Part shown: piece by piece, positions 2,798-42,006 of the stretch
Numbering within the stretch: position 1 is the first letter of the stretch
Layout of the letters: each line of letters opens with the position of its first letter
Translations under genes and position numbers: made by a program
The notes under the pieces: model-generated
Database searches by the model: none
Seen by the model: the letters and a program-made list of their open reading frames with translations, nothing else
Told to the model about the DNA's origin: nothing
Origin: a virus
Lineage: Duplodnaviria; Caudoviricetes
IMG/VR virus record: IMGVR_UViG_3300034130_000039
Coordinates: 1 to 43,597 of that record
Strand: one strand, 5' to 3'
Length of the DNA: 43,597 nucleotides

Positions 2798-3210
2798 CGA
2801 CGTTTTCACGCTCCGAGGACTACGCGCTGATTCGGGACATTTTGACCGACGCGCGGTGCTGGCGGCGCATGACGAAAGAGGAACCGGGCTCCCTCTCGGG
2901 ATTTATGCCCGGCCCAACACACGGAAGAATTGCTTACATCGTAGCGCGCGAAGGCGCGGCGGCCGCGGCCGTGTTCCTCATCGTGGACGGCCTAGAGATC
3001 CATTTTTGCTTCCGGCCGCGGACGTGGGGCAGGACCGAACCGATCGCGCGCGCCTTTCTCGAGTGGGTTTGGCGCGAGACAGACGCGACGCGGCTCGTCG
3101 GGCCCGTCCCGAAACACAACCGGCTCGCATTGCGCCTGGCGCGCGCTGCCGGCTTCACAGAATTTGCAGCCACCGTCGACCACGTGCTGCTCGAAATCAG
3201 GAAACCATGA
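2794..3210 (+). CDS. GNAT-fold P22 gp14/DUF2824-like protein
   Basis: EIHFCFRPRTWG and NRLALRLARAAGF motifs. Lies between tail and ejection genes. GTGA-coupled start. Confidence 0.75.
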   Translation: MTTFSRSEDYALIRDILTDARCWRRMTKEEPGSLSGFMPGPTHGRIAYIVAREGAAAAAVFLIVDGLEIHFCFRPRTWGRTEPIARAFLEWVWRETDATRLVGPVPKHNRLALRLARAAGFTEFAATVDHVLLEIRKP

Positions 3211-4445
3211 CGAAGAACCAACTGCTCGAACTCTTTCCGCTCGGGGATGCGTTCGAGCCGAACCGCCCCGGCGCCCGCGTCCACGATCCTATTTCCGCCA
3301 TCACCGGCGCGGTATCGGCGGGCACCAGCCTGCTCGGCGGACTATTCGGATCGAACGCGGCCAAGAGCGGAGGCAAGCTCATCAACACGGCCGATCAGAA
3401 CGCTGCGCAATCGACCCTCGACACGACCTCGGGCGTAAATACGAGCGATCTTGCCGCTTCGACTCAAGCGGGAACCGATGTAAAAAACCAAGCCACGGCG
3501 GGAACGCAAATCGTCAATGATGCGACGACCAAGGCCAATCAGGGCGTCACGGATACGCAGGGGCAGGGTGCTCAGGCGGTCACAAATTCGGCCTCGACGG
3601 GCGCAGGCCAAGTCAGCGACGCCACGAAGACGGCGAATGCTCTCCTGGACCCTTACGCGCAATCGGGAGCCGATGCGAATAAGGTTCTCGACGCCGGCAT
3701 CGCACCTGGCGGGCAGTTCGATTCGACCCCGACTCTCTCGCAACTCCAGATGGACCCCGGCTATGCGTTCCGCTTGCAGCAAGGATCGACGGCGCTCGAC
3801 CGTTCGGCCGCGGCGCGCGGCGGCGTGACCTCCGGAGGCGACATCAAAGCGCAGACCGATTACGCGCAAGGATCGGCCTCGCAGGAATATCAGAATGCGT
3901 TCAACCGCTACGAAACGGCGACGCAGAACAACTACGCCAACGTCAGCGGCGTGGCGAATCGCGGGCTGACGGCCGGAACCCAGATGGGCACAAACGACAT
4001 CAATTCGGCGACCTACGGCTCGAACCTCAACTACAACGCGGCGCAGTATGGCGCCACCACCGCGAACACGGCCGCGCAGTGGACCGGCCAGCAGGACATC
4101 AATTCAGGCGAATTCAACACCAACAGTCTGAACAACGCCCAGCAGTATGCAAGCAACATGGACGTGAACGAGCACAACCTGACCGGCCAGCAGACCATCA
4201 ACGCCGGCAACACCGCGAACAATTACCGCGTGGCCGGATCGACCGCCATCGCGCAAGGCAACATGGGCGCGGCAAACGCGTGGAGCGGCGCGCTCAACGG
4301 CGTCGGCAACGCGGCGCTCTATTCGGGCAACCCGTACAACAACAGCTCCCGAGGCTACAACGGAAACGGCACGGGCAGCTATGACGGCACGCCCGGCATT
4401 GGCAGCGGCTTCGGCCACCAGAATGCTCCTGGCTCGGGCTACTAG
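3207..4445 (+). CDS. DNA ejection protein, P22 gp7-like
   Basis: Leader followed by DPISAITGAVSAGTSLLGGLFGSNAA. DPGYAFRLQQG...SAAARGG motif. Gly/Ala/Asn-rich. Confidence 0.8.
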   Translation: MTKNQLLELFPLGDAFEPNRPGARVHDPISAITGAVSAGTSLLGGLFGSNAAKSGGKLINTADQNAAQSTLDTTSGVNTSDLAASTQAGTDVKNQATAGTQIVNDATTKANQGVTDTQGQGAQAVTNSASTGAGQVSDATKTANALLDPYAQSGADANKVLDAGIAPGGQFDSTPTLSQLQMDPGYAFRLQQGSTALDRSAAARGGVTSGGDIKAQTDYAQGSASQEYQNAFNRYETATQNNYANVSGVANRGLTAGTQMGTNDINSATYGSNLNYNAAQYGATTANTAAQWTGQQDINSGEFNTNSLNNAQQYASNMDVNEHNLTGQQTINAGNTANNYRVAGSTAIAQGNMGAANAWSGALNGVGNAALYSGNPYNNSSRGYNGNGTGSYDGTPGIGSGFGHQNAPGSGY

Positions 4446-6152: not shown

Positions 6153-9100
6153 ATGCCCGACGCCATTGATTACGGTCAATCTTCGACGACCCCGCCGGCA
6201 GCCCCGCCCGCGGGACCGATCGACTATGGGCAGTCTTCGACGGATCGGCCCGCGGACAAAGGTTTTTTCTCGGGCATGGTGAAAGGCTCCTCAATCCTCA
6301 CCGCCCTCTCGCACCCGCTCGACACGCTCGCGAGCATGACCGGCGCCGACAAGATTCAGGAAGCGAAAAAGGACTACGACGCCGGCGACAAAAAGGGCGC
6401 GGCGCTCAAGCTGATGCAGTATGCGCAGCACACGCTGAACGGCGGGCCCGCCGGCGACATGGCGCAAGGCCTTCTCGACGCATCGAAGGATCAGGGAAGC
6501 AAGGCCTGGGACGCGTTCAAGTCGGGCGACTACCATAAGGCCGCGAACCACGCGGCGGCGGCGATGGTGCCGATCTTCGCGCCGGCGGCCGAAGGTGCTG
6601 ACCAGGTGAACAAAGGCCTGGCGGACCTCAAGGCGGGCCCCGACTATCCCAACCAGACCGCCGGCGAACGGCTGTCGGCGGTCTTGGACAATCCCGACGT
6701 GCGCGAGGGAGTCGGCACGGTGGCCGGCAACGCGTTCGACTTCGTTGCGCCCGAGCTGGGAGGCAAGGTAGTCGAAGCGGCGCCGGCGGCCGGCAGGATC
6801 GTCGCGGACGCCGGCAAGGGCGCCTGGAAGGGCGCCACCGCGCCGACCACGCTGCCAATCAAGATCAAAGGCGTACCGCTTGGCGAAGTGAACGGCTTGC
6901 CCGCCGCGGTCACGGGCGCGGCCACGGGCGCGGGCGTCGGCGCGTTCGTTCCAGGCGTCGGTCCAGTGGTAGGCGGCGCCGTAGGCGCGGCCGTGCCAGT
7001 TGTGAAGGGCGCGATCGCCGGCGTGCGAGAAGGAATGGCTGCGCGCGCGGCCGGCCCCTCGACCCTCGCTCAGCGACTCGCCGAAGGGCGCGTCGCGGTT
7101 GCCGCGACCGACGCGGCAGCCGGGACAGCGGCACCCGCCGCGGCAGCCATCCGTCCCGAGTGGAACCAAATCGCGAAGCAGCTCGGCGGCAAAGACTACG
7201 CGTCCATGAGTGGGGCGTGGCAGGACAAAATTCGCATGATGGCCGGCGAACCGGCCGCGGCCACGCCTCCACCGCTCCCGCGGCCGGCAGCTCCCCCACC
7301 GCTCCCGCAGGAACCGGCCGCCACGACGCCAGCCGAACCGGAACCAGCCGCCACCGGCCCCCGCACCCCCTACGAAATCGCGGACGAGATCATGGCGCAG
7401 CGACGCGCGGAAGCAGCCGCGGCAGCTCCACCGCCGGCAGCTCCACCGGAACCGACCGCGGCGCCAGCTCCACCGGCGGCAGCTCCCCCGGAACCCGCCA
7501 CCGCCGCGGCGCCTCCCGCAGAAACGCCCTCCGAACCCCCGGCACCTGTACCCTCGGCACCCCCCGCCGACGCGCCACAGCCCGCCGAATCCGCCCATTA
7601 TGCGGCTTTACGCAAAACCGCCGGCGATCGCGGCGCGGATGCGGCGATCGCGAAAGACCAGGTCATCGTCGACTGGATCAGAAAGAACCACCCCGAGTGG
7701 ACCGGCGCCGACATCAAACCGGGCCAAGCCTTTAAAGACATGGTCGACGGGACCAAATTCGAAGCGGGCATTAAGAACCCGAACGGCAAGTCGGGCAAAT
7801 TCACGACGCGCATAAACGACGCGGACCACGTCGATCGAGTGCAAGCCGTGGCGGACGAGCTCGACCGGAAGATCGCGCGCGCGAAGATCAACGACGCCGG
7901 CACCGCGGCGCGCGCAGCCGGCGCTCCGGACCAGCTCATCGAAGCCCGTGAGCGCCTCGGACGAGCTACAGTAGGAGACCCCAATGCAACCCCCGACAGT
8001 GGACAAACCGTTCAAGCTCCCACAGGAGCCCAAGGAGCCGCAGGCGCCGAAGGTGCACCTCCCGTTGCCACCGCACCCGCCGCAGGCGTGGACGCCGGCG
8101 CAATTGGAACACGGCAAGCACTTCCAGAGCAGGTTCGCGCAGGCGGCGAAGGTTCACCTGGTGCGAGTGTCCAAGGCAACCGCACCCGCATCGACGTCCC
8201 CGGCGAAGCCCGCAGCTATCAAGGGCATTACGAAGTTGGAGAATTAGCCGACAGCCAGCCGTCGCACCACGGAGCGACGTTTCAGAAAAACCCCCGCTAC
8301 CAGCTCCGCAACGACCGCAACTACGACAACCCGGTCAATCAGGGCAAGATCGTCAATTGGTCAACCGCGGATCCCGAAACCGGCTACAAGCCCGCCAACC
8401 TGATTAACACCGCGCCCGATTCTTCGAGCGGTCCGCCCGTTCAAGATTCCGCCGGCAACGTGCTCGGCGGCAACGGCCGCACCATGATCCAGCAGCGCGT
8501 AGCGGCCTCGAACCCGGCCGGCGCCCAGGCCTATCGCGCCTTGCTCGACCAGAGCGCGGCGCACTATGGCATCGACCCGGCCAGCTACGCGCACATGAAA
8601 GAACCTTTCCTGCGCCGCGTGGTAGACGACGCCGAATTCTCGAGAACGGGTTCCAAGCAGGACGCGGTCACCAACTTCAACAAGAGCGGCACCGCGGCCC
8701 TGACGCCCTCAGAGCAGGCCGTGGCCGATTCGCGGCGCGTGTCGCAAGGAACGCTCGAGGAACTCGCGCAACGGCTCGATGCGAAGGGACCGGACGGCAC
8801 GCTCGCGCAAGTGCTCGAAGGAAAAAGCGGCCTCGAAATGCTTGGCAAGCTCGTCGACGACGGCGTCATCAGCCCGCAGGAGCACGCGAAGCTGGCAACT
8901 GAAACGCAGCTCACCAAGGCCGGCAAGGAACGCGTCTCGGGCCTCATGCTCGGCCGCTTCTTTGAGAACTCCGAGCAGATGGACGTGCTCCCCGCGGAAC
9001 TGAAGAACAAAATCGAGCGCATCGCGGCGCCGGCGGCGCGCGTCGAAGGCGGCGACTATTCGCTCTCGCCCACGCTGAAGAAATCGCTCGGGCTCATCGA

Positions 9101-9959
9101 ACACGCGCAGGCGACGGGCATGAGCATCGACGACCACTTGCAACAGACCGGCATGTTCTCGGACGATAAGTACCCGCCGCAGGCCGTGGCACTCGCGAAG
9201 CAGCTCCAGTCCCGCGGCGCCATCAATCTCACCGACGCGGTGCGCCAGTACGCAGAGCGCGCGAAATACGCGGCCGAATACCAGGGCCCAGGCATGTTCG
9301 GCGAGTTTCCAGAACCGCACACGCCGGCGCAGGCCTTCGAGGAAAGTTTCGGACCGAAAGCGCTCGCCGATGAAGCCGCGGCAAAGATTGCGGCCAAGGC
9401 CGCGAAGCAGCCGGCGGCCGAACCGGCGCCTGGGCTACTCGATCGAGTAATGCAGGGCGCCAAAGAGCTGCTCATCGACAAGACCGGCAGCGTCCGGATC
9501 CGCGGCAAGTCGAGCGCGGCAGCCTACGACGACGCGCACCAGACCAGCATGTTCGGCGATCCGGAACCGGCCGCAACGCCGGCAGGCGACGCAGGCACGG
9601 CCGCGGCGCTCAAGGATGCGATGACCAAGCAATTGAAGTACGGCGGGCCCCCCAGCGGGCGCACCATCGGCGGCCCCTTGTTCGATCAGCAGGAGGGCAT
9701 GTTCGGCGCGCCGGCGGAAGCCGTTCAAAAAACCGCGTCGGCGCTCAAGGACGGCCCGCACCCTGCCAGCGGACAAGAGAGAATCATCGACGCGATTCAG
9801 GCCAAGGGCTTCAGCCGCGTCGACGCGCTCAAGGCGGTCCAGACAATGCTAAAAATGAAGGTCGCCAAGTTTGATGCGCTGGGCCAGTTCAGCGTCAAGC
9901 ACGGCATGTTCCTCGAACCGGACGTGATTCGCAACGCGATCGCAGCGTGGAAGCCTTAA
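6153..9959 (+). CDS. Large ejection (gp16-position) polyvalent protein with DdrB-like ParB domain
   Basis: 1268 aa with a Pro/Ala linker. YEVGELADSQPSH...RNDRNY...GPPVQDSAGNVLGGNGRTM matches my recollection of the ddrB-ParB domain of phage polyvalent proteins. Confidence 0.75.
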   Translation: MPDAIDYGQSSTTPPAAPPAGPIDYGQSSTDRPADKGFFSGMVKGSSILTALSHPLDTLASMTGADKIQEAKKDYDAGDKKGAALKLMQYAQHTLNGGPAGDMAQGLLDASKDQGSKAWDAFKSGDYHKAANHAAAAMVPIFAPAAEGADQVNKGLADLKAGPDYPNQTAGERLSAVLDNPDVREGVGTVAGNAFDFVAPELGGKVVEAAPAAGRIVADAGKGAWKGATAPTTLPIKIKGVPLGEVNGLPAAVTGAATGAGVGAFVPGVGPVVGGAVGAAVPVVKGAIAGVREGMAARAAGPSTLAQRLAEGRVAVAATDAAAGTAAPAAAAIRPEWNQIAKQLGGKDYASMSGAWQDKIRMMAGEPAAATPPPLPRPAAPPPLPQEPAATTPAEPEPAATGPRTPYEIADEIMAQRRAEAAAAAPPPAAPPEPTAAPAPPAAAPPEPATAAAPPAETPSEPPAPVPSAPPADAPQPAESAHYAALRKTAGDRGADAAIAKDQVIVDWIRKNHPEWTGADIKPGQAFKDMVDGTKFEAGIKNPNGKSGKFTTRINDADHVDRVQAVADELDRKIARAKINDAGTAARAAGAPDQLIEARERLGRATVGDPNATPDSGQTVQAPTGAQGAAGAEGAPPVATAPAAGVDAGAIGTRQALPEQVRAGGEGSPGASVQGNRTRIDVPGEARSYQGHYEVGELADSQPSHHGATFQKNPRYQLRNDRNYDNPVNQGKIVNWSTADPETGYKPANLINTAPDSSSGPPVQDSAGNVLGGNGRTMIQQRVAASNPAGAQAYRALLDQSAAHYGIDPASYAHMKEPFLRRVVDDAEFSRTGSKQDAVTNFNKSGTAALTPSEQAVADSRRVSQGTLEELAQRLDAKGPDGTLAQVLEGKSGLEMLGKLVDDGVISPQEHAKLATETQLTKAGKERVSGLMLGRFFENSEQMDVLPAELKNKIERIAAPAARVEGGDYSLSPTLKKSLGLIEHAQATGMSIDDHLQQTGMFSDDKYPPQAVALAKQLQSRGAINLTDAVRQYAERAKYAAEYQGPGMFGEFPEPHTPAQAFEESFGPKALADEAAAKIAAKAAKQPAAEPAPGLLDRVMQGAKELLIDKTGSVRIRGKSSAAAYDDAHQTSMFGDPEPAATPAGDAGTAAALKDAMTKQLKYGGPPSGRTIGGPLFDQQEGMFGAPAEAVQKTASALKDGPHPASGQERIIDAIQAKGFSRVDALKAVQTMLKMKVAKFDALGQFSVKHGMFLEPDVIRNAIAAWKP

Positions 9960-15409: not shown

Positions 15410-16033
15410 TCACGGTAGCAGTACGACGGGCCACGAGGACGACGGCAAAACCTTGGCGGCGGGGAACGCCCAGAGCATGAGGTTCGAGCCGTCGCTTTGG
15501 ACCAGCCTCACCAGTTGGAGCGTCGCGCAGCTCGGGATCGGGCCCGTTGCGTCGGCGCACAGCGACCACGTGAACGGCAGCGGCGACACGAAGATTTCGG
15601 ACACAATCGCGTTGCCGGCCGTGGCAGCAAACTGCAAGTGCAGCACGCCCGCGCCGACGAAGGCCAGCATCGGGAAAACGTAAGGCTTGTTGACGCCGCC
15701 GGCGAGGGTGAACACGTCCAGCGGCGCCGATGTTTGCCCGTTCGCGGTGATGGTGAACACGCGCTGGCCCGCCGCCGTTTTGTTCGGCTCGGTCAGGGTC
15801 ATCCAGACCGAATACATCCCGTTGGCGAGCGGGATGTTGTAGCTGAAGGAGCTGCCGTAGCGCAGAAACGCCAGAGGCGCGGCCAGCGGCATTGGCCACG
15901 CCCCTATGCCTCCCACGAAGTATTGATCGCTGGGCGAGCCGCACGCGATGGTCACATTGCCGGGAGGAGCGGCCGCGGCGGCCGGGAGCGCGAGGAGAAG
16001 GAAGACGGCTGCGAGCCCCGCCCTCGTCCTCAC
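15410..16033 (-). CDS. Secreted malectin-domain carbohydrate-binding protein
   Basis: GTGA-coupled start; signal peptide. RYG..FSYNIPLANGMYSV...EP....GQRVFTITANG....LDVF..AGG.NK is the malectin signature. Confidence 0.8.
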   Translation of the reverse strand: MRTRAGLAAVFLLLALPAAAAAPPGNVTIACGSPSDQYFVGGIGAWPMPLAAPLAFLRYGSSFSYNIPLANGMYSVWMTLTEPNKTAAGQRVFTITANGQTSAPLDVFTLAGGVNKPYVFPMLAFVGAGVLHLQFAATAGNAIVSEIFVSPLPFTWSLCADATGPIPSCATLQLVRLVQSDGSNLMLWAFPAAKVLPSSSWPVVLLP

Positions 16034-16626
16034 GCCCTCGGAGGCCACGTCCAGAAGCCCACCTCGGGCGGATGCGCCGGGTTCGTCCATTCCGCGGCGC
16101 TCGGGATCAGCTTGTGCACCGCGAACATCGTCGTGACAGCCAGGCGCAGCGTGCCGTCCGGATTCACCTTGAGGACCTGCGCCGGGAACTCCGTGACCGT
16201 GACCTTGCCGTTGACCCCGTGATGGTGATTGAACGTCTCCGGGTCGGCGTGGAAGATAACGCGGTCGCCGATCCTCGGGTGGTATGGGGCGGCCGTGCCG
16301 TGGACCTGCCTGCCGGCCTGCGTCGCGTTGCGCGGATCTCCAGGCGGATATGCCGACGCGGGCGGCGCCGCTCCGTCGTGGTACGCGGGCTCGTCGACGC
16401 GCATGCCGGATTGCGCCAGCCCCGCGTTCTGCCTTTCGTTTTGGCGCTGGTCTTGCGCCAGCGGATTGTTCGGGTCGTTGCGCTGGATGTCGCCGCGCGT
16501 CGGATCGGGATGGGCCTGCGTCGCGTTGCCCTGCTCGCTCGGCGGCGGCGGAACACGCGAATCGTTCTTGGCGGCTTGCGCATCGGCCTCGCGCTGGCGT
16601 TGCGCCTTTTGCTCGGCGGGTGTCAC
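16030..16626 (-). CDS. Hypothetical phage protein (disordered N-term; PRIGDRVIF...PAQV...WTWPPR domain)
   Basis: C-terminal domain resembles the common phage PxVGRxVxY...PAxV...WxWPxR family. Confidence 0.7.
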   Translation of the reverse strand: MTPAEQKAQRQREADAQAAKNDSRVPPPPSEQGNATQAHPDPTRGDIQRNDPNNPLAQDQRQNERQNAGLAQSGMRVDEPAYHDGAAPPASAYPPGDPRNATQAGRQVHGTAAPYHPRIGDRVIFHADPETFNHHHGVNGKVTVTEFPAQVLKVNPDGTLRLAVTTMFAVHKLIPSAAEWTNPAHPPEVGFWTWPPRA

Positions 16627-22062: not shown

Positions 22063-22599
22063 CTAGTTCTTCCCGTATTCGTCGAGACTCGCTCGGCTGA
22101 TGCGCCACGTCACGGGCCCGCGTCCGATGTGGTTCACCTGATCGGTGCGCAGCAGATTCGCGATGAACGGCTGAGGCAGGCCGCAGTATCGCGATGCTTC
22201 CTCGATGGTTAGAAAGGCCTTGGGTCCTTCGCGCGCGGCGGTCGTCAATGCCGCCAGGTGCTCCGTCAGTTTCGCGAGGTAATCCGCAAGCGCTCGCGCG
22301 CTATCGATCTGCACTCCATTCACGGCGGCCGCCTGGGCTTTTCGCGCGTCTATTTTCTCGATGACTCGCTCAACCTGGAGTTTTTGAAATTCCTCCTGTT
22401 GTGCGGCGCCGCGTGTCGCGCTGAGTTTTTCGATTACCTCCTCGCGGAATAGTGCCCGCCCCTGCGCGTCCTTCGTTTTCTCGAACTTTTCCAACTGCGC
22501 GATTCGCTCCATTTGGCGAAGGCTCACTCCCAAAACCTGAGCGGCTTCTTTCTTCGTGAGCCAGTTCGCGGTATCTTTAGCGGCGGCTGTGGTTGCCAT
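22063..22599 (-). CDS. Double HTH_17 (Xis/MerR-like) DNA-binding protein
   Basis: WLTKKEAAQVLGVSLRQM and FLTIEEASRYCGL...WRISRASLD; GGAGG RBS. Confidence 0.8.
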   Translation of the reverse strand: MATTAAAKDTANWLTKKEAAQVLGVSLRQMERIAQLEKFEKTKDAQGRALFREEVIEKLSATRGAAQQEEFQKLQVERVIEKIDARKAQAAAVNGVQIDSARALADYLAKLTEHLAALTTAAREGPKAFLTIEEASRYCGLPQPFIANLLRTDQVNHIGRGPVTWRISRASLDEYGKN

Positions 22600-22610
22600 T
22601 TAGTCCTCCC

Positions 22611-22679
22611 CGACATTGCGCCGCGACGCACTGAGTCTGACGTTGATAATGTCGCACTCAATGTCGCGGTCCATGTCAG
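22611..22679. promoter_or_regulatory. ATGTC repeat array in the divergent intergenic region
   Basis: aatgtcgc 22648, aatgtcgc 22660, catgtcag 22672 (12-bp period); inverted cgacattg at 22611. Confidence 0.5.
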
Positions 22680-22758
22680 GGGTCGATTGTACCCGCCCGT
22701 CCGCCCGCCCGTCAAGACCCAGCCCTGTCGGGCATTCCGGCTGCTGAGAGAGACTGGT

Positions 22759-23349
22759 ATGTATGTATCCCCATCGATACTGCTGATCGTCAAAGCTCGC
22801 CCACCGCCGCCCGTAATCGCCATCGATTCAGGCGGACACCGCGCTCGTTTCCTCGCGAAACGCGACGCGCTGGTGGAAGCAAACCTGCACCTGGTCGCTC
22901 CGATAGCCAACCGCATTTTCCGCAAGCTCCCGCCCTCCTTCGACCTCGACGACCTCCTCGCCACCGGCTACCTCGCCCTGCTACACGCCGCCACGCGCTA
23001 CCGGCCGCGAGAACACGGCGGCACGCCGTTCTCGGCTTTTGCCCGGCCACGCATCAACGGCGAAATTCTCAATTCCATCCGGCGGAAGAACTGGGACGAG
23101 AACACGCGTCCGCCCCTGGACGACGCGCCCGAGCCGAGCACCGGACCGATGGACACCCGCTTTGACGAGCGGCGTTTGAGAAAACGGCTGTTGCGGGCGA
23201 TAGACGGCCTCCCAGCGCGTCCGCGCGACCGCGCCGGGCACTTCCAGAGCACTGCCGCGAAACTCGCCGAGGTCCACGAGTGGCGGGCCGCCGGCGAACA
23301 CGTCGAAGCGATCGCAACACTCAGGCGTGAGCTAAAGAGAGCGGCTTGA
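22759..23349 (+). CDS. Truncated FliA/WhiG-like sigma-70 family factor
   Basis: Region 2 RDALVEANLHLV..IA...LPPSFDLDDL...G..AL..AA.RY...FSAFARPRI.GEIL..IR. Region 3 absent, region 4 degenerate. Start uncertain. Confidence 0.8.
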   Translation: MYVSPSILLIVKARPPPPVIAIDSGGHRARFLAKRDALVEANLHLVAPIANRIFRKLPPSFDLDDLLATGYLALLHAATRYRPREHGGTPFSAFARPRINGEILNSIRRKNWDENTRPPLDDAPEPSTGPMDTRFDERRLRKRLLRAIDGLPARPRDRAGHFQSTAAKLAEVHEWRAAGEHVEAIATLRRELKRAA

Positions 23350-23350
23350 T

Positions 23351-23554
23351 GTGGAGGCCACACGTCTGGTGCGGGTCTACCGCATCCGTCCGACCATGCG
23401 CCTGTCCGACCTCACCTACGAGGCGAAGGTGTATTTGCGCGGCGCCGGGCTCTATCGGCTAGGGCTCGTGGGATCGCTCGAAATCTGGTGTAGGCGGGAA
23501 GGCAAGCACGTCACGGCCGCGGGTCCGACCTGGCGGTCAATTGCCGGCCCGTGA
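23351..23554 (+). CDS. Hypothetical protein
   Basis: Short ORF after the sigma gene; weak support. Confidence 0.4.
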   Translation: MEATRLVRVYRIRPTMRLSDLTYEAKVYLRGAGLYRLGLVGSLEIWCRREGKHVTAAGPTWRSIAGP

Positions 23555-23950
23555 ACGCGTCCTGATCCGAATCCAAAGCGAAGAAGGCCGCCGCGGCGAG
23601 TAGAACAGCGACAAATCCCGCGCGAGTTCCGCAACGAACTCGCGCTCGATCACCGGCCCGCCCAGCCACGACTCGCGCAACCGCGCGGCGATCCGGTAGC
23701 AGAAAACCATGTCGGCGTCGCTCGCCTCCTCGCCCGGTCCCAGCACTCCGAGCATTCGAAGCGCGTCTTTGGTCATGTCGCGCGTGATGACGAAAGACCA
23801 CGGCCCGGTCGTGCGGGTCTTCGCCGGCGCCGGCGACGGTATCGAACGCGCGACGACGGGCGTGGCGACCGTGCTGATCGCGCCGGCCAAGAGGCCGCGG
23901 AAGAAGCCGCGGCGCGAATTGTGAGGATTTTGAGGATTGTGAGACGGCAT
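23537..23950 (-). CDS. Tat-signal protein with gp4 adaptor-like domain
   Basis: SRRGFFRGLLAGA twin-arginine signal. TRDMTKDALRMLGVLGPGEEASDAD...LRESW...LARDL..FY parallels 40559 and 41254. GAGG RBS. Confidence 0.7.
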   Translation of the reverse strand: MPSHNPQNPHNSRRGFFRGLLAGAISTVATPVVARSIPSPAPAKTRTTGPWSFVITRDMTKDALRMLGVLGPGEEASDADMVFCYRIAARLRESWLGGPVIEREFVAELARDLSLFYSPRRPSSLWIRIRTRSRAGN

Positions 23951-23962
23951 GGTGGACCTCTG

Positions 23963-24002
23963 AAAAAGTACGGGCGCCTCGCGGATACAACGGGGCGCCC
24001 GT
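23963..24002 (-). terminator. Intrinsic terminator
   Basis: GC stem acgggcgcc/ggcgcccgt followed by ACTTTTT on the minus strand. Confidence 0.6.
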
Positions 24003-24059: not shown

Positions 24060-24407
24060 TTACGGCGTCGGCACCGGCGTGATAGGCACGGGCTGACCAA
24101 CAGGAGTTGTCGAGATCGCGTTCATCTGCGCGAGGACGGCATTGCCCGCCGCGATCGCGCTATCGAGCGAGGTCTGATCGGCGGCGCTGATCGGGCCAGG
24201 CGAATTGTTGATGTTCGCCAGTTCGGTGACGATAATCAACACGGCGGCGGCGAGATTCGACAGCGCCGCGCCCTCGGCAATCTGTAGCGCGTTCATCTTC
24301 GTCGCGAATTGCTGGATCGCGTCGGGAGCAGTGGAGCACCGGCCCGTTTCGAGAGCCAGGCCACGCGGCGCGTTCGCGAGCCGCGAGTAAAATTCCAGTT
24401 TTTTCAT
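24060..24407 (-). CDS. Hypothetical Ala-rich helical protein
   Basis: AAGGAAG RBS; followed by a terminator. Confidence 0.7.
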   Translation of the reverse strand: MKKLEFYSRLANAPRGLALETGRCSTAPDAIQQFATKMNALQIAEGAALSNLAAAVLIIVTELANINNSPGPISAADQTSLDSAIAAGNAVLAQMNAISTTPVGQPVPITPVPTP

Positions 24408-26077: not shown

Positions 26078-26099
26078 TGGTGACTATATCTGTGCATGG
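26078..26099 (+). promoter_or_regulatory. Putative late promoter 2 (TGGTGACTATATCTGTGC-ATG)
   Basis: Near-duplicate of 24779-24800, directly before the NusG-like gene. Confidence 0.65.
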
Positions 26100-26791
26100 T
26101 GCTTCTTTCACTTCCTGTGACTGAGACGGCTTCGCGCGTCCTAACCCCGCGCCCGATGCGGGAGGCGCCCCGGCCCAGCGTCGTAAGGTCCCTCCCCCGT
26201 GCGTATGATCATCTTCTGTCGGTCGAAGCACTGGCGGCGGAACGGCGGCGGCGCTTCATCGAAAACGACCCGCTCCTTCGCGGCGGCGATACGAGCTGGT
26301 TTGCGCTGCGCGTGAAAAGCAACATGGAGTTCAAAGTTCGCGCCTCGCTCCAGGGTTTCTTGATCGAAACGTTCCTGCCGACATGGTCGGAGGACGTGCG
26401 GTGGTCGGATCGCGTAAAGCGCACCGAGCGGCCATTATTCCCCGGCTACCTTTTCGTTCGCATCGCGCCTGGCCCCGACTTCTATCGGTCGATTCAAACG
26501 CGAGGAGTCATTCAAATTTTGCCCAACTCGTTTAACCCCGCGCCGATCGACGAAAAAGAAATCGAAGCCGTGCGGCTCGTCGTGGCTTCCAAGCTACACA
26601 CCGCGCCCTGCTCGTTTGAGGCGGGCGAGCTGGTCACCATCGAAAGCGGACCGCTGGCGGGCGTGAAAGGCGTAATCACGAAAACGAAAGGCGCGCTGCG
26701 CGTCGTCGTTTCGGTCGAACTCTTGCGGCGCTCGATCGCGGTCGAACTCGACGCGGACACCCTACTTAAAGTGCAGGTAGAGGCGGCATGA
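26096..26791 (+). CDS. NusG paralogue (UpxY/LoaP/RfaH-like) transcription antiterminator
   Basis: NGN domain WFALRVKSNME...FLP....WSDR....PLFPGYLFV; KOW domain GELVTIESGPLAGVKG. Confidence 0.9.
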   Translation: MVLLSLPVTETASRVLTPRPMREAPRPSVVRSLPRAYDHLLSVEALAAERRRRFIENDPLLRGGDTSWFALRVKSNMEFKVRASLQGFLIETFLPTWSEDVRWSDRVKRTERPLFPGYLFVRIAPGPDFYRSIQTRGVIQILPNSFNPAPIDEKEIEAVRLVVASKLHTAPCSFEAGELVTIESGPLAGVKGVITKTKGALRVVVSVELLRRSIAVELDADTLLKVQVEAA

Positions 26792-28251: not shown

Positions 28252-29865
28252 TTGGCCGCAAGCACAAAACGCCAGCTCGGACAAGTCCGAGCTTGTCCGA
28301 GTCGGTCCGAGTTGGCGTCCGGGTTGGCCATCGAGCTGTGGCCGATCGCCCGGCCGCAACCGTATGCGAAGAACGCTCGCACGGTGACCGCGCGGGCGAT
28401 CGATAGCGTGGCGGCTAGTCTTCAGGAATTCGGCTGGCGGCAGCCCATCGTGGTGGACGCGAAGGACGTCATCGTGGCGGGCCACAAGCGGCTGCTCGCG
28501 GCTCAGAAGCTCGGCATGACCGAGGTTCCAGTCCACGTGGCGGCCGGCCTCACCGCGGCGCAGTGCAAGGCCTACCGGCTCATGGACAATCGCTCGAACC
28601 AGAACAGCGAGTGGGACATGGAGCTGCTCCAGTCCGAGATGCAGGAAATGGTCGGAAAAATTGACCTTTCTCTCACCGGATTTGAAGCTGAAGAAATCCG
28701 GCGAATGCTCGAAGAATCGTCGGCGGCCGATCCGGACGCCAGTCCGGACCCGCCGGCGGCGCCCGTATCGCGCACTGGCGACCTGTGGCAGCTCGAAGGG
28801 CACCGGGCCCTTTGTGGCGACTCGACCAAGCCCGCGGACGTGGCACGGCTCGCGGAAGGCGCCGTCTCGTGCCTTTTGCACGCGGACCCGCCGTATGGAA
28901 TGGGCAAGGAAGCGGTCGGCGTCGAAAACGACAATCTGAACCAGGCGGACCTGGCGACGTTCCAAATGCTGTGGTGGGCGGCTTACCGGCCGTTCCTCAC
29001 CGCCAACGCCAGCGTCTACGTGTGGGGCTCACCGGCCGGCCTGTGGCGGCTCTGGTACTCGGGCGGCTTGCAGGCGTCGGAACGCATGACGCTCCGCAAC
29101 GAGATCGTGTGGGACAAGGGCGCCGGCCGCGGTCAGAACTCCGACGAGATGCGCAGCTACGCGGTCATGACCGAGCGGTGCCTGTTCTTCATGCTGGGCG
29201 AGCAAGGTTTCGGCAACACGAACATGGAGGACTACTGGGAAGGGTTCGAGCCGATCCGCGGCTGGATGGAGCAACAGGCCGGTTTGATGAAGTGGGGCCC
29301 GCGGGACGTTCGACGCATCACCGGCGTCGGCATGTTCTCGCACTGGTTTTCGAAATCGCAATGGGTGATGATCCCCGAGGTGCATTACGCGAAGCTACAG
29401 GCCGCGGCCAACGGCAACGCGTTCAAGCGACCCTACGCGAAGTTGCGCGCGCTCTACGACGGCGGGCTCGCCGACGACGGGCACCTGGCGGCGAAGCAGG
29501 AGTTTTACGGAACGCGGGCGTTTTTCGACAACACCCACGACAACATGAACGAAATATGGTCGTTCCCGCCGGTACTCGGTGAGGAGCGGCAAGGTCACGC
29601 CACGCCGAAGCCGGTCGACCTGATAGCGCGTGCCGTCAAGTCATCGGCGCCGGCCGGCGAAGTGGTACTCGAGCCGTTCGGCGGAAGTGGATCCACTTTG
29701 ATCGCGTGCGAGAAATCCGGCCGGCGCTGCTACTCGATGGAACTCGACCCCGGCTACGTCGACGTCGTCGTTATGCGGTGGGAGAAATTCACCGGCAAGA
29801 AAGCCACGCTCGGCGGACGAACGTTCGAGCAAGTCGCGGCCGATCGCGCGAAAGGGAAAAAATAA
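28252..29865 (+). CDS. ParB-N domain fused to N6/N4 DNA methyltransferase
   Basis: PYAKNAR...FGWRQPIVVD....VAGHKR; DPPY; HATPKP; EPFGGSGST. The start may be TTG 28312 or 28324. Confidence 0.9.
   Translation: MAASTKRQLGQVRACPSRSELASGLAIELWPIARPQPYAKNARTVTARAIDSVAASLQEFGWRQPIVVDAKDVIVAGHKRLLAAQKLGMTEVPVHVAAGLTAAQCKAYRLMDNRSNQNSEWDMELLQSEMQEMVGKIDLSLTGFEAEEIRRMLEESSAADPDASPDPPAAPVSRTGDLWQLEGHRALCGDSTKPADVARLAEGAVSCLLHADPPYGMGKEAVGVENDNLNQADLATFQMLWWAAYRPFLTANASVYVWGSPAGLWRLWYSGGLQASERMTLRNEIVWDKGAGRGQNSDEMRSYAVMTERCLFFMLGEQGFGNTNMEDYWEGFEPIRGWMEQQAGLMKWGPRDVRRITGVGMFSHWFSKSQWVMIPEVHYAKLQAAANGNAFKRPYAKLRALYDGGLADDGHLAAKQEFYGTRAFFDNTHDNMNEIWSFPPVLGEERQGHATPKPVDLIARAVKSSAPAGEVVLEPFGGSGSTLIACEKSGRRCYSMELDPGYVDVVVMRWEKFTGKKATLGGRTFEQVAADRAKGKK
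28270..28328. repeat. GTCCGAG array with 10-bp period plus an inverted copy
   Basis: GTCCGAG at 28285, 28295 and 28305; GTCCGGG at 28317; CTCGGAC at 28276. Confidence 0.7.
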
Positions 29866-40558: not shown

Positions 40559-41254
40559 ATGCTCGTCAGTGACGTCATCTTCAACTCGTTCCTCGATATG
40601 GGCGCCGTCGCGCCCGGCGAGACGCTCACGGCCGCGGAATCCGCCGACGCGTTCGCGCGGCTCAACATGCTGCTGTCGAGCTGGTCGACCGAGGGCATCA
40701 CAGTTCCCTCGCTGCTTCACGGCCCGTTCACGGTCGCCGCCGGCACCAACAATTACACGTTCGGCGTGGGCGGCACGCTCGCTACCACGTCGCGGCCGAT
40801 CCGCGTCACTGGCGCGCAAAGCGTTTCCGGCAATTTCCGAATGGGCATGAAGGTCATGAGCTTCGATCAGTTCGCGCAAGAAGTCTCGGACCCGATCGCG
40901 TCTGCTTCCGTGCTGGCCGAAGTGCTCGCCGCGGACGGCTCTTTCCCGCTGATCAATCTTCGCGTTCATCCGATGCCGGCGGCATTGCCGGGTATTTTGT
41001 GGCTCGACTACTGGGCGGCGATCGCGCAGTTCGTCACCGTAGGCGACACGCTCAACCTCCCGGACGGCTGGCCCGACGCGCTGCACTTCAATCTCGCCCT
41101 CGCATTGCTGCCTCAATACGGGCGCGCGGGCGGGGCAGATCCGATGCTGCTCCAGAACGCGAAGCGCACCAAAGACGCGCTCAATAACCTGTACGCGCAG
41201 ATTAACCCGCTGCCGCAGGGCCCGCCGCAGCCGCAGCAGCAGGGAGGTCAGTAA
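40559..41254 (+). CDS. Head-to-tail adaptor, P22 gp4-like (copy 1)
   Basis: DVI...F...G..APGET...E..DA..RLN.LL.SW; LP.GW..AL..NLA..L.PQYG. Confidence 0.8.
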   Translation: MLVSDVIFNSFLDMGAVAPGETLTAAESADAFARLNMLLSSWSTEGITVPSLLHGPFTVAAGTNNYTFGVGGTLATTSRPIRVTGAQSVSGNFRMGMKVMSFDQFAQEVSDPIASASVLAEVLAADGSFPLINLRVHPMPAALPGILWLDYWAAIAQFVTVGDTLNLPDGWPDALHFNLALALLPQYGRAGGADPMLLQNAKRTKDALNNLYAQINPLPQGPPQPQQQGGQ

Positions 41255-42006
41255 TGGCCGACCCGACCATCACGTGCGCGCAGCTCATCGGCTCGGCTCT
41301 GAGGATCGCAGGCATCACCGGGCGGCCTGGACGCATCTCATCTCCGGACCAGTCCACCGAAGCGATCGCCGCGTTAAACAGAATGCTCGGTTCGTGGAAT
41401 TGCGACCCGCTGAAAGTCTTCGAGACGCAGGTTGATCGATACGCACTCACCCCCCAACAAACCGACTACTTCATCGGCCCGACCGGCGATTTCGTCGCGC
41501 CGCGTCCCATCAAGATCGTGCGCGCCAACATCGTGCTCACCGACGAAGCTCCGGAGCTGCACAAGCCCCTGCGCGTCGTCGAAGTGACCGACTGGGCCGA
41601 CATCGTATTCCCCGAACTGGAGGCCGGCGCATGGCCCGCGGTGCTCTATAACGACCACGCGATGCCCGACTCGAAGCTCTATCTCTATCCGCAACCGATC
41701 GCGGCAAACGACCTGGAGCTGTTCACGTTGAGCGCGATTCAGCAGTTCGTGGCACTCACCGACGTCGTGGAGCTTCCGGACGGCTACGAGGAAGCGATCG
41801 TCTACAACCTGGCGCTCCGCGTCGCCTCGCATTACCCGACCCAGGCGAGTCTCGCGCCCGAAGCGCCCGATCTCGCGAACGAAGCGCTCGCCCGCATCCA
41901 GTCGAACAACGCGCCGGTACCGCGGCTCCGCAACGACGCTGCCGGCCTCGGACACGGCGCGCGCAACGCCGACAGCCGCTGGTGGCTCTCGGGAGGCTTC
42001 GAGTAA
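41254..42006 (+). CDS. Head-to-tail adaptor, P22 gp4-like (copy 2)
   Basis: LI..ALR..GI..........EA...LN.ML.SW; LPDGYEEAIVYNLALR....Y. Confidence 0.8.
   Translation: MADPTITCAQLIGSALRIAGITGRPGRISSPDQSTEAIAALNRMLGSWNCDPLKVFETQVDRYALTPQQTDYFIGPTGDFVAPRPIKIVRANIVLTDEAPELHKPLRVVEVTDWADIVFPELEAGAWPAVLYNDHAMPDSKLYLYPQPIAANDLELFTLSAIQQFVALTDVVELPDGYEEAIVYNLALRVASHYPTQASLAPEAPDLANEALARIQSNNAPVPRLRNDAAGLGHGARNADSRWWLSGGFE

Follow-up and report, generated by a model that had tools for sequence, protein, structure and literature searches.

A short phage gene that joins a putative twin-arginine leader to a predicted gp4-type head-tail adaptor core

What use could a phage have for a trimmed head-tail adaptor fold placed behind an export-type leader? 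The question is raised by the ORF at positions 23537-23950 (minus strand) of the stretch of DNA analysed here, hereafter the window, with a length of 43,597 nt. With its 127-nt end repeat, the window represents a phage genome in circular form. It holds P22-type terminase, portal, scaffold and coat genes, ejection-type proteins and a tailspike, and it also encodes its own sigma factor, a NusG paralogue and a serine recombinase. A preliminary description had read the ORF as a Tat signal peptide fused to a miniature gp4 domain; its coordinates, its location on the strand opposite the late genes and the quoted motifs were all found to be correct. In a separate peat metagenome assembly, which may stem from the same source sample, the region is unbroken with 0 differences. 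Four small-share DNA runs left the ORF uncovered, and no RNA run was listed as containing the window.

The ORF starts with an ATG at position 23950 and encodes a protein of 137 aa, here called the mini-adaptor, composed of a Tat-type leader, a linker, a gp4-like core and a variable tail. The leader spans residues 1-34 (23849-23950, minus strand), with the arginine pair at residues 13-14 (23909-23914). It is followed by a Pro/Ala/Thr-rich linker (residues 35-52, 23795-23848) of low model confidence, the AlphaFold2 pLDDT being <50 for residues 21-48, and by the core (residues 54-120, 23591-23791) with predicted helices at residues 57-67, 78-94 and 102-117. The basic tail (residues 121-137, 23540-23590) is of low confidence and unconserved among the five family members. 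A coat-like nature of this tail was considered and rejected, as 204 of 1,000 shuffles scored as well.

Several coding signs were detected. A Shine-Dalgarno-like GAGGT (23956-23960, minus strand) lies 5 nt ahead of the ATG. The GC3 value is 0.80 for the ORF and 0.87 for the core, against 0.81-0.83 for four structural genes, and the codon log-odds is the top value of the six frames yet negative (-9.6 vs -22.9 to -120.5). Judged from its sequence, the ORF is a real feature with coding signs, and its expression is putative. Immediately upstream of the ribosome-binding site (RBS), a G+C-rich hairpin (9+3 pairs, 23970-24002) followed by five U occupies positions 23963-24002 of the same strand. The 141-nt region around it has a folding z of -3.2, and the hairpin was not listed by a consensus terminator scan. 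It is possibly a terminator or a 5' stabiliser; since a terminator-like element sits directly before the RBS, expression may need read-through. The leftward unit showed no sigma-70-type promoter.

The Tat consensus is an N-terminal S/T-R-R-x-F-(L/F), and a TATFIND-style rule asks for an uncharged hydrophobic stretch of at least 13 residues after the arginine pair. In the mini-adaptor the motif SRRGFFR is located at residues 12-18 and is followed by 16 uncharged residues ending in V-V-A, where V-x-A cleavage after residue 34 is possible. All five family members display RR-x-F/L-F and, after the arginine pair, an uncharged stretch of 13-22 residues, as the TATFIND-style rule demands. None of the five passed the cut-offs of TIGR01409 and PF10518: the 137-aa protein gave no match, and among its four relatives P0034 alone matched PF10518, below the cut-off (E 0.0034). 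In the wider leader class described below, the TIGR01409 cut-off was passed by two of eight tested members. The miss of the five family members weighs little because such short models overlook true signals. The motif thus supports a leader of the Tat type, and Tat targeting is putative. With Tat substrates the mini-adaptor shares S-R-R-x-F-F, the uncharged stretch and a possible A(-1) site; it differs from the known ones in that its passenger is a virion fold and not a cofactor enzyme, and in that the curated models are unmatched.

The identity of the core is less obvious from sequence comparison. The whole ORF has no match in Pfam, among the NCBIfam Tat models or in PHROG, and the PF11650 and PF24175 profiles gave no match above cut-off for the mini-adaptor. 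The phage has two adaptor genes of its own, both of the gp4/SU10 type, at 40559-41254 (plus strand, with a central insert) and 41254-42006 (plus strand), which served as references. The preliminary description had seen a likeness to these two genes by eye; the link to the gp4 fold stood, while the pairwise sequence likeness is weak (E 0.017 and 0.28), and against a profile of the two adaptors 7 of 2,000 shuffles scored above the mini-adaptor. For three relatives the best PHROG was 12985 (E 0.0096-0.18). In phmmer searches of 1.84 billion proteins, a repeat protein with PF11650 domains was matched at E 2.7e-4. A hhalign probability of 96 was obtained against insert-less adaptors, a partly circular value as 13 of the 21 comparators had been chosen by a motif derived from the family. 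A sequence search of the PDB with the family profile returned two weak unrelated rows only.

Structure prediction was more informative. The AlphaFold2 model, built on a five-row alignment, displays three helices with block pLDDT values of 77-93 over residues 51-120. Foldseek against the PDB and BFVD returned nothing significant (no E <1), and the highest probabilities (0.38-0.44) were those of P22 gp4 chains. VIA re-alignment covered 220 Foldseek candidate chains, and its top six rows are all head-tail adaptors, namely four P22 gp4 chains and two of cyanophages (Z 8.7-7.2, the next row being at 5.1). Residues 54-120 superimpose on residues 4-98 of P22 gp4 with Z 8.7 and an rmsd of 2.2 A over 67 residues at 19% identity; the adaptors of Pam1 and Pan3 are matched at Z 7.2. 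VIA Z values of this size can be ordinary among helical bundles, and given this caveat the gp4 assignment is carried by the clean ranking together with the independent Atlas and sequence links. In the ESM Atlas, seven of seven structure rows were mainly viral clusters on residues 53-121, with gp4/SU10 labels in four of them; the relative P0030 gave weak structure rows naming no adaptor family, and an ESM feature search produced no usable match. The SRRGFF motif together with VIA, Atlas, phmmer and hhalign supports the main proposal, a twin-arginine-type leader on a co-opted gp4 fold, with export putative. The models support a core with the three-helix gp4-type fold, shared with P22 gp4 and Sf6 gp7 (PF11650) and with the SU10-type adaptors (PF24175; PHROG 12985 and 637).

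What the mini-adaptor lacks is as telling as what it keeps. The preliminary description had stressed a missing central insert, and the insert is indeed absent; P22 gp4 itself is also without the long insert, however, which makes the absence of all that follows gp4 residue 98 the more telling. The alignment stops at this residue of 166, and the C-terminal 68 residues (99-166), which include the portal-binding arm, have no counterpart. The link between helices 2 and 3 is also shorter than in P22 gp4, and the N-terminal leader is added. The P22/Sf6 adaptor is described as a monomer that oligomerises only on the portal, its C-terminal arm inserting between portal subunits, and the tail hub as binding only the pre-formed adaptor ring (PMC9728967). 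The mini-adaptor is thus unlikely to be a neck adaptor, because the portal-inserting arm is absent. Its gene, unlike that of gp4, is located apart from the tail operon (coat to tail hub) and on the other strand, and the phage also has two adaptor genes that are intact. By its model the mini-adaptor may at best mimic gp4 behind an export-type tag, and it does not qualify as a gp4 adaptor.

Could the gene be what is left of a duplicated adaptor gene, decaying or neutral, to which a leader was added by chance? The phmmer search (1.84 billion representatives) returned nine rows: the query, four leader-plus-core proteins, the 958-aa repeat protein and three others. The latter, a trypsin-domain protein, a ferric reduction oxidase and a low-complexity insect protein, are all repetitive and were set aside as spurious. 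One of the relatives, P0039 (142 aa), was used in place of P0036, its shorter partner in a two-protein cluster. Conservation, which the preliminary description had made a condition of its proposal, was borne out by these four metagenomic relatives: they and the query display a common leader-linker-core layout at 33-52% identity, with 10 invariant core positions. P0030 ends in a stretch resembling the coat protein of the window (10 of 14 residues identical, E 2e-4).

Further searches did not enlarge the family. Word-index homologue searches gave the query alone or the four members already known, and no leader-gp4 locus was found in viral contigs (68 motif frames), JGI metagenome contigs or cultured phages. 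Nor did 401 genomes from the phylum to which the host probably belongs yield one; the two weak matches there were an ordinary adaptor gene and a 659-aa frame matched over model positions 6-61. In a tree of 48 columns and 44 rows, four mini-adaptors group together at 100/98, with the phage's own adaptors apart. For a group of all five the values are 74/82, by which it is neither established nor rejected. The well-supported clade of four, separate from these adaptors, points to a maintained family. When comparators were ranked against the core, the own adaptors came 44th and 53rd of 64, in a ranking that is biased since 30 comparators were picked by motif. By this ranking and the tree, a recent copy of the own adaptors was rejected. 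That the gene is a remnant agrees with the rarity of the design (five proteins among 1.84 billion representatives, none in the 401 host-phylum genomes or in cultured phages) and with the negative codon log-odds. It is nevertheless improbable, given an intact frame, an RBS, a genome-like GC3, a layout kept by five proteins at 33-52% identity and the recurrence of the leader-payload design with many payloads, as shown below.

Other unusual adaptor genes were noticed during these searches. The repeat protein (P0035/P0038, 958 aa, from other genomes) consists of eight tandem insert-less gp4-type domains (PF11650, E 2.8e-26); one source labels it 3-dehydroquinate dehydratase, apparently wrongly, and it might form an adaptor ring or stack from one chain. 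Many viral contigs (L126-L201) encode gp4/SU10-type adaptors with about 115 in-frame residues ahead of the first helix. The two own adaptors of the window (40559-42006) are tandem paralogues, 28% identical, and may build stacked neck rings; such a pair is also present in G001, G002, G005 and G008.

The surroundings of the gene were then considered. A co-oriented ORF of 115 aa (24060-24407, minus strand) lies upstream of it in the same slot. In the closest syntenic records, G001 (75% complete) and G002 (73%), the sigma, 24797-type and NusG genes around the slot are kept, and neither a match to the mini-adaptor nor such a leader was found in these partial records. As there is no match despite the kept flanks, the gene looks like an accessory passenger of its own descent in a variable slot. 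In the slot of G002, a minus-strand gene (L220:14125-14229) is a virion-piece fusion without the arginine pair: its first 35 residues are 49% identical (E 1e-6) to the probable N-terminus of the ejection protein at 2856-4445, and its C-terminal half resembles ORF 24060-24407, as judged by eye alone. The closest capsids in GTDB bins are those of an Acidobacteriaceae bin (58%) and a Bryobacterales bin (56%), and for this reason the host is likely to belong to the Acidobacteriota, as far as capsid sequences tell. Bins from other phyla contain four further capsids (47-51%), each on a short contig. The Acidobacteriaceae and Bryobacterales bins both contain TatC.

Some other genes of the window deserve mention. 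The sigma-70-type factor (22513-23349) and the NusG paralogue (26096-26791) precede the late genes and also occur in G001, G002 and G005. In the early-gene region, a malectin-domain protein (15410-16090, minus strand; PF11721, E 1.5e-9) has a hydrophobic N-terminal stretch. An ejection-type protein of 1,268 aa (6153-9959) contains a ddrB-like ParB domain, and a ParB-methyltransferase fusion (28252-29865) is located before the terminase.

The mini-adaptor has company in a wider class of leader genes. One narrow leader spelling, M-N-R-R-G-F-[LFI], is found in about 220 viral stretches. The scan gave 121 loci coding for 117 distinct proteins, of which the 112 with at least 30 aa were used for counting; the closed proteins (n=95) have a median length of 94 aa. 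PHROG matches to head, connector and tail families, with capsid, portal, connector and tail pieces among them, were obtained for 13 of the 112 at E<=0.01 (three of them cut by the locus end and one being the L010 gene again) and for 20 at E<=0.1 (two of them near-duplicates). L298 was not included in these counts, being a genuine capsid gene whose reading had started at an ATG within it. Among 50 adjacent co-oriented ORFs taken as control, six matched a PHROG at E<=0.01, and no structural match was seen at E<=0.1 (13/112 vs 0/50, one-sided Fisher p about 0.007). Many capsid payloads match over 25-60 residues only. PHROG 14307 (function unassigned, 137 positions) matches a leader-tail-collar protein, L336, from residue 1 (E 1.7e-34), which suggests that the class may also occur in isolated phages or in prophages, where its members would be open to experiments.

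Another scan, for a coat motif seeded by the tail of P0030, covered 119 loci of about 220 stretches and gave 118 frames. Four of these stop within 49 residues and all four begin with an RR leader, whereas the other 114 reach the end of the locus. Since an intact coat gene is present in each of the four records, the leader-coat genes are extra copies. Up to several RR-leader genes occur per phage, with five in G005, two in G007 and one in G006, the script behind these counts having missed the gene of G008; some of the mini-genes of L205-L207 (G005) and L214 (G007) stand as tandem pairs. Coat pieces are supported in L205:15994-16281 and L214:1774-2037 and weakly in L214:2046-2288. Three G005 payloads read by eye as gp4 insert, coat I-domain and nozzle were unconfirmed by phmmer, with one weak tail PHROG (E 0.23).

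The constancy of the leader raises the possibility that it is itself the working part, occupying or stressing the Tat translocase or the membrane, and that the gp4 core is merely a small folded passenger taken from virion genes. An uncharged run of at least 13 residues occurs in 95 of the 112 proteins and a hydrophobic segment in 99, whereas payloads vary freely and mostly have no recognisable source; one relative even carries a gp4 core plus a coat-like tail. This explanation is rather unlikely, as the identifiable payloads are nearly all virion proteins and not the equally detectable replication enzymes (13 matches at E<=0.01 against a single DNA-binding one among the 112), and as five divergent proteins all retain the core, in which 10 positions are invariant.

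If the core matters, where would it act? The preliminary description had placed it in the periplasm, as a superinfection-exclusion decoy for the tail or ejection machinery of an incoming phage or as a partner of exported virion parts. Such a location suits the ability of Tat to export folded domains, the predicted folding of the core and the possible cleavage site after the hydrophobic stretch; channels of the P22 type, moreover, are reported to span the periplasm, where SieA-type exclusion acts (10.64898/2026.09.03.749273). In the P22 infection structures described there, however, gp4 belongs to the assembly outside the cell, and it is gp20 and gp16 that build the channel through the periplasm and the inner membrane (10.64898/2026.09.03.749273). 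The partners of the adaptor, portal and hub, would be outside the cell and already occupied. The capsid and portal payloads of the sister genes have partners in the cytoplasm and none in the periplasm, which tells against exported virion parts as well. Both periplasmic proposals fared poorly and a role of this kind is improbable; a cytoplasmic target fits better with the sister payloads and with the extracellular position of gp4.

A candidate for such a target is offered by a 2026 study of STAND sensors, which describes recognition of capsid, portal, portal adaptor (Avs12), nozzle and tail proteins (PMC12803255). According to this study, Avs sensors bind monomers via the conserved core, leaving insertions and extensions generally unbound, and Avs12 responds to the portal adaptor by enveloping the globular fold of the monomer (PMC12803255). 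Tat is also established to carry untagged partners as hitchhikers (PMC10924467). It is tentatively proposed that the mini-adaptor is a bait pulling an Avs12-type cytoplasmic adaptor sensor to or across the membrane via Tat hitchhiking, a reading favoured because the mini-adaptor keeps the core of the Avs-bound type and Tat carries untagged partners. The folded core would bind a host protein recognising adaptor monomers, the leader would hold the complex at the translocase or export it as a hitchhiker, the sensor would be inhibited rather than activated, and the real adaptors of the phage would thereby escape notice. Loss of insert and arm with retention of the core is the pattern that Avs sensors reportedly bind, and the capsid, portal, connector and tail payloads of the class overlap with the Avs targets; both observations support the bait. 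So do the extra copies of coat behind leaders, the mini-adaptor clade at 100/98, the variable slot and TatC in both acidobacterial bins. Avs12 recognises the kind of core that the mini-adaptor keeps and is its proposed target, not its relative.

The main weakness of the bait is that a folded core is expected to activate an Avs sensor, so that removal by Tat must outrun activation. Capsid pieces of 25-60 residues are probably too little for shape recognition by Avs7/8/10. The missed curated Tat models, the 92 of 112 class members not counted as virion-piece carriers and the terminator-like hairpin before the RBS also count against it. The opposite effect, a tripwire or antigen shown on purpose and triggering or priming host defence against other phages, would draw on the report that Avs sensors can be activated by core folds and by truncated targets (PMC12803255) and on the hairpin, which suggests conditional expression. 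This is highly improbable: the export leader would clear the trigger from the cytoplasm, and a trigger left unchecked would be lethal to the carrier's own host.

A cytoplasmic target could also be another phage. As an assembly poison, the armless core would bind the adaptor rings, portal or hub of a co-infecting phage and the leader would tether or export them, in the manner of Tai/Tab. Prophage and satellite inhibitors of tail assembly (Tai) represent a known prophage strategy (PMC11364771), and the serine recombinase makes lysogeny possible for this phage. The class payloads are assembly proteins, and the core scores higher against adaptors of other phages than against the own ones (44th and 53rd of 64 in the motif-biased set), so that it could spare self. 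By description, Tai are small accessory genes of mobile elements acting against tail assembly, like the mini-adaptor in kind, and export-tagged copies of virion folds do not appear in the part of that description considered (PMC11364771). An assembly poison is nonetheless doubtful, since adaptors are reported to stay monomeric until they reach the portal through the very arm that is absent, the hub wants a pre-formed ring (PMC9728967), and capsid-piece genes are usually nearest to the coat of the carrier or of a near relative, with a risk of self-harm.

No matching family was found for the design of a leader on a trimmed virion fold, which lies outside the families tested. In the full-text literature searched, from which most subscription papers fall outside, Tat-tagged virion fragments were not found described, and the Avs study, as far as considered, describes no decoy of this design (PMC12803255). 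The design is common all the same, with about 220 viral stretches for one narrow spelling and up to five genes per phage. It is conceivable, if unlikely at present, that phages keep an arsenal of Tat-tagged, stripped virion baits shipping out cytoplasmic pattern-recognition proteins, with the mini-adaptor as the adaptor-specific member. Because the payload is a whole foldable core of known structure with a reported sensor in Avs12, the decoy idea is directly testable in E. coli; short capsid pieces are harder to test in this way. If true, the bait would give phages a general means of countering sensors that read conserved phage folds, Tat hitchhiking would have been put to a new use, and the payloads of the class would map the virion surfaces that hosts detect.
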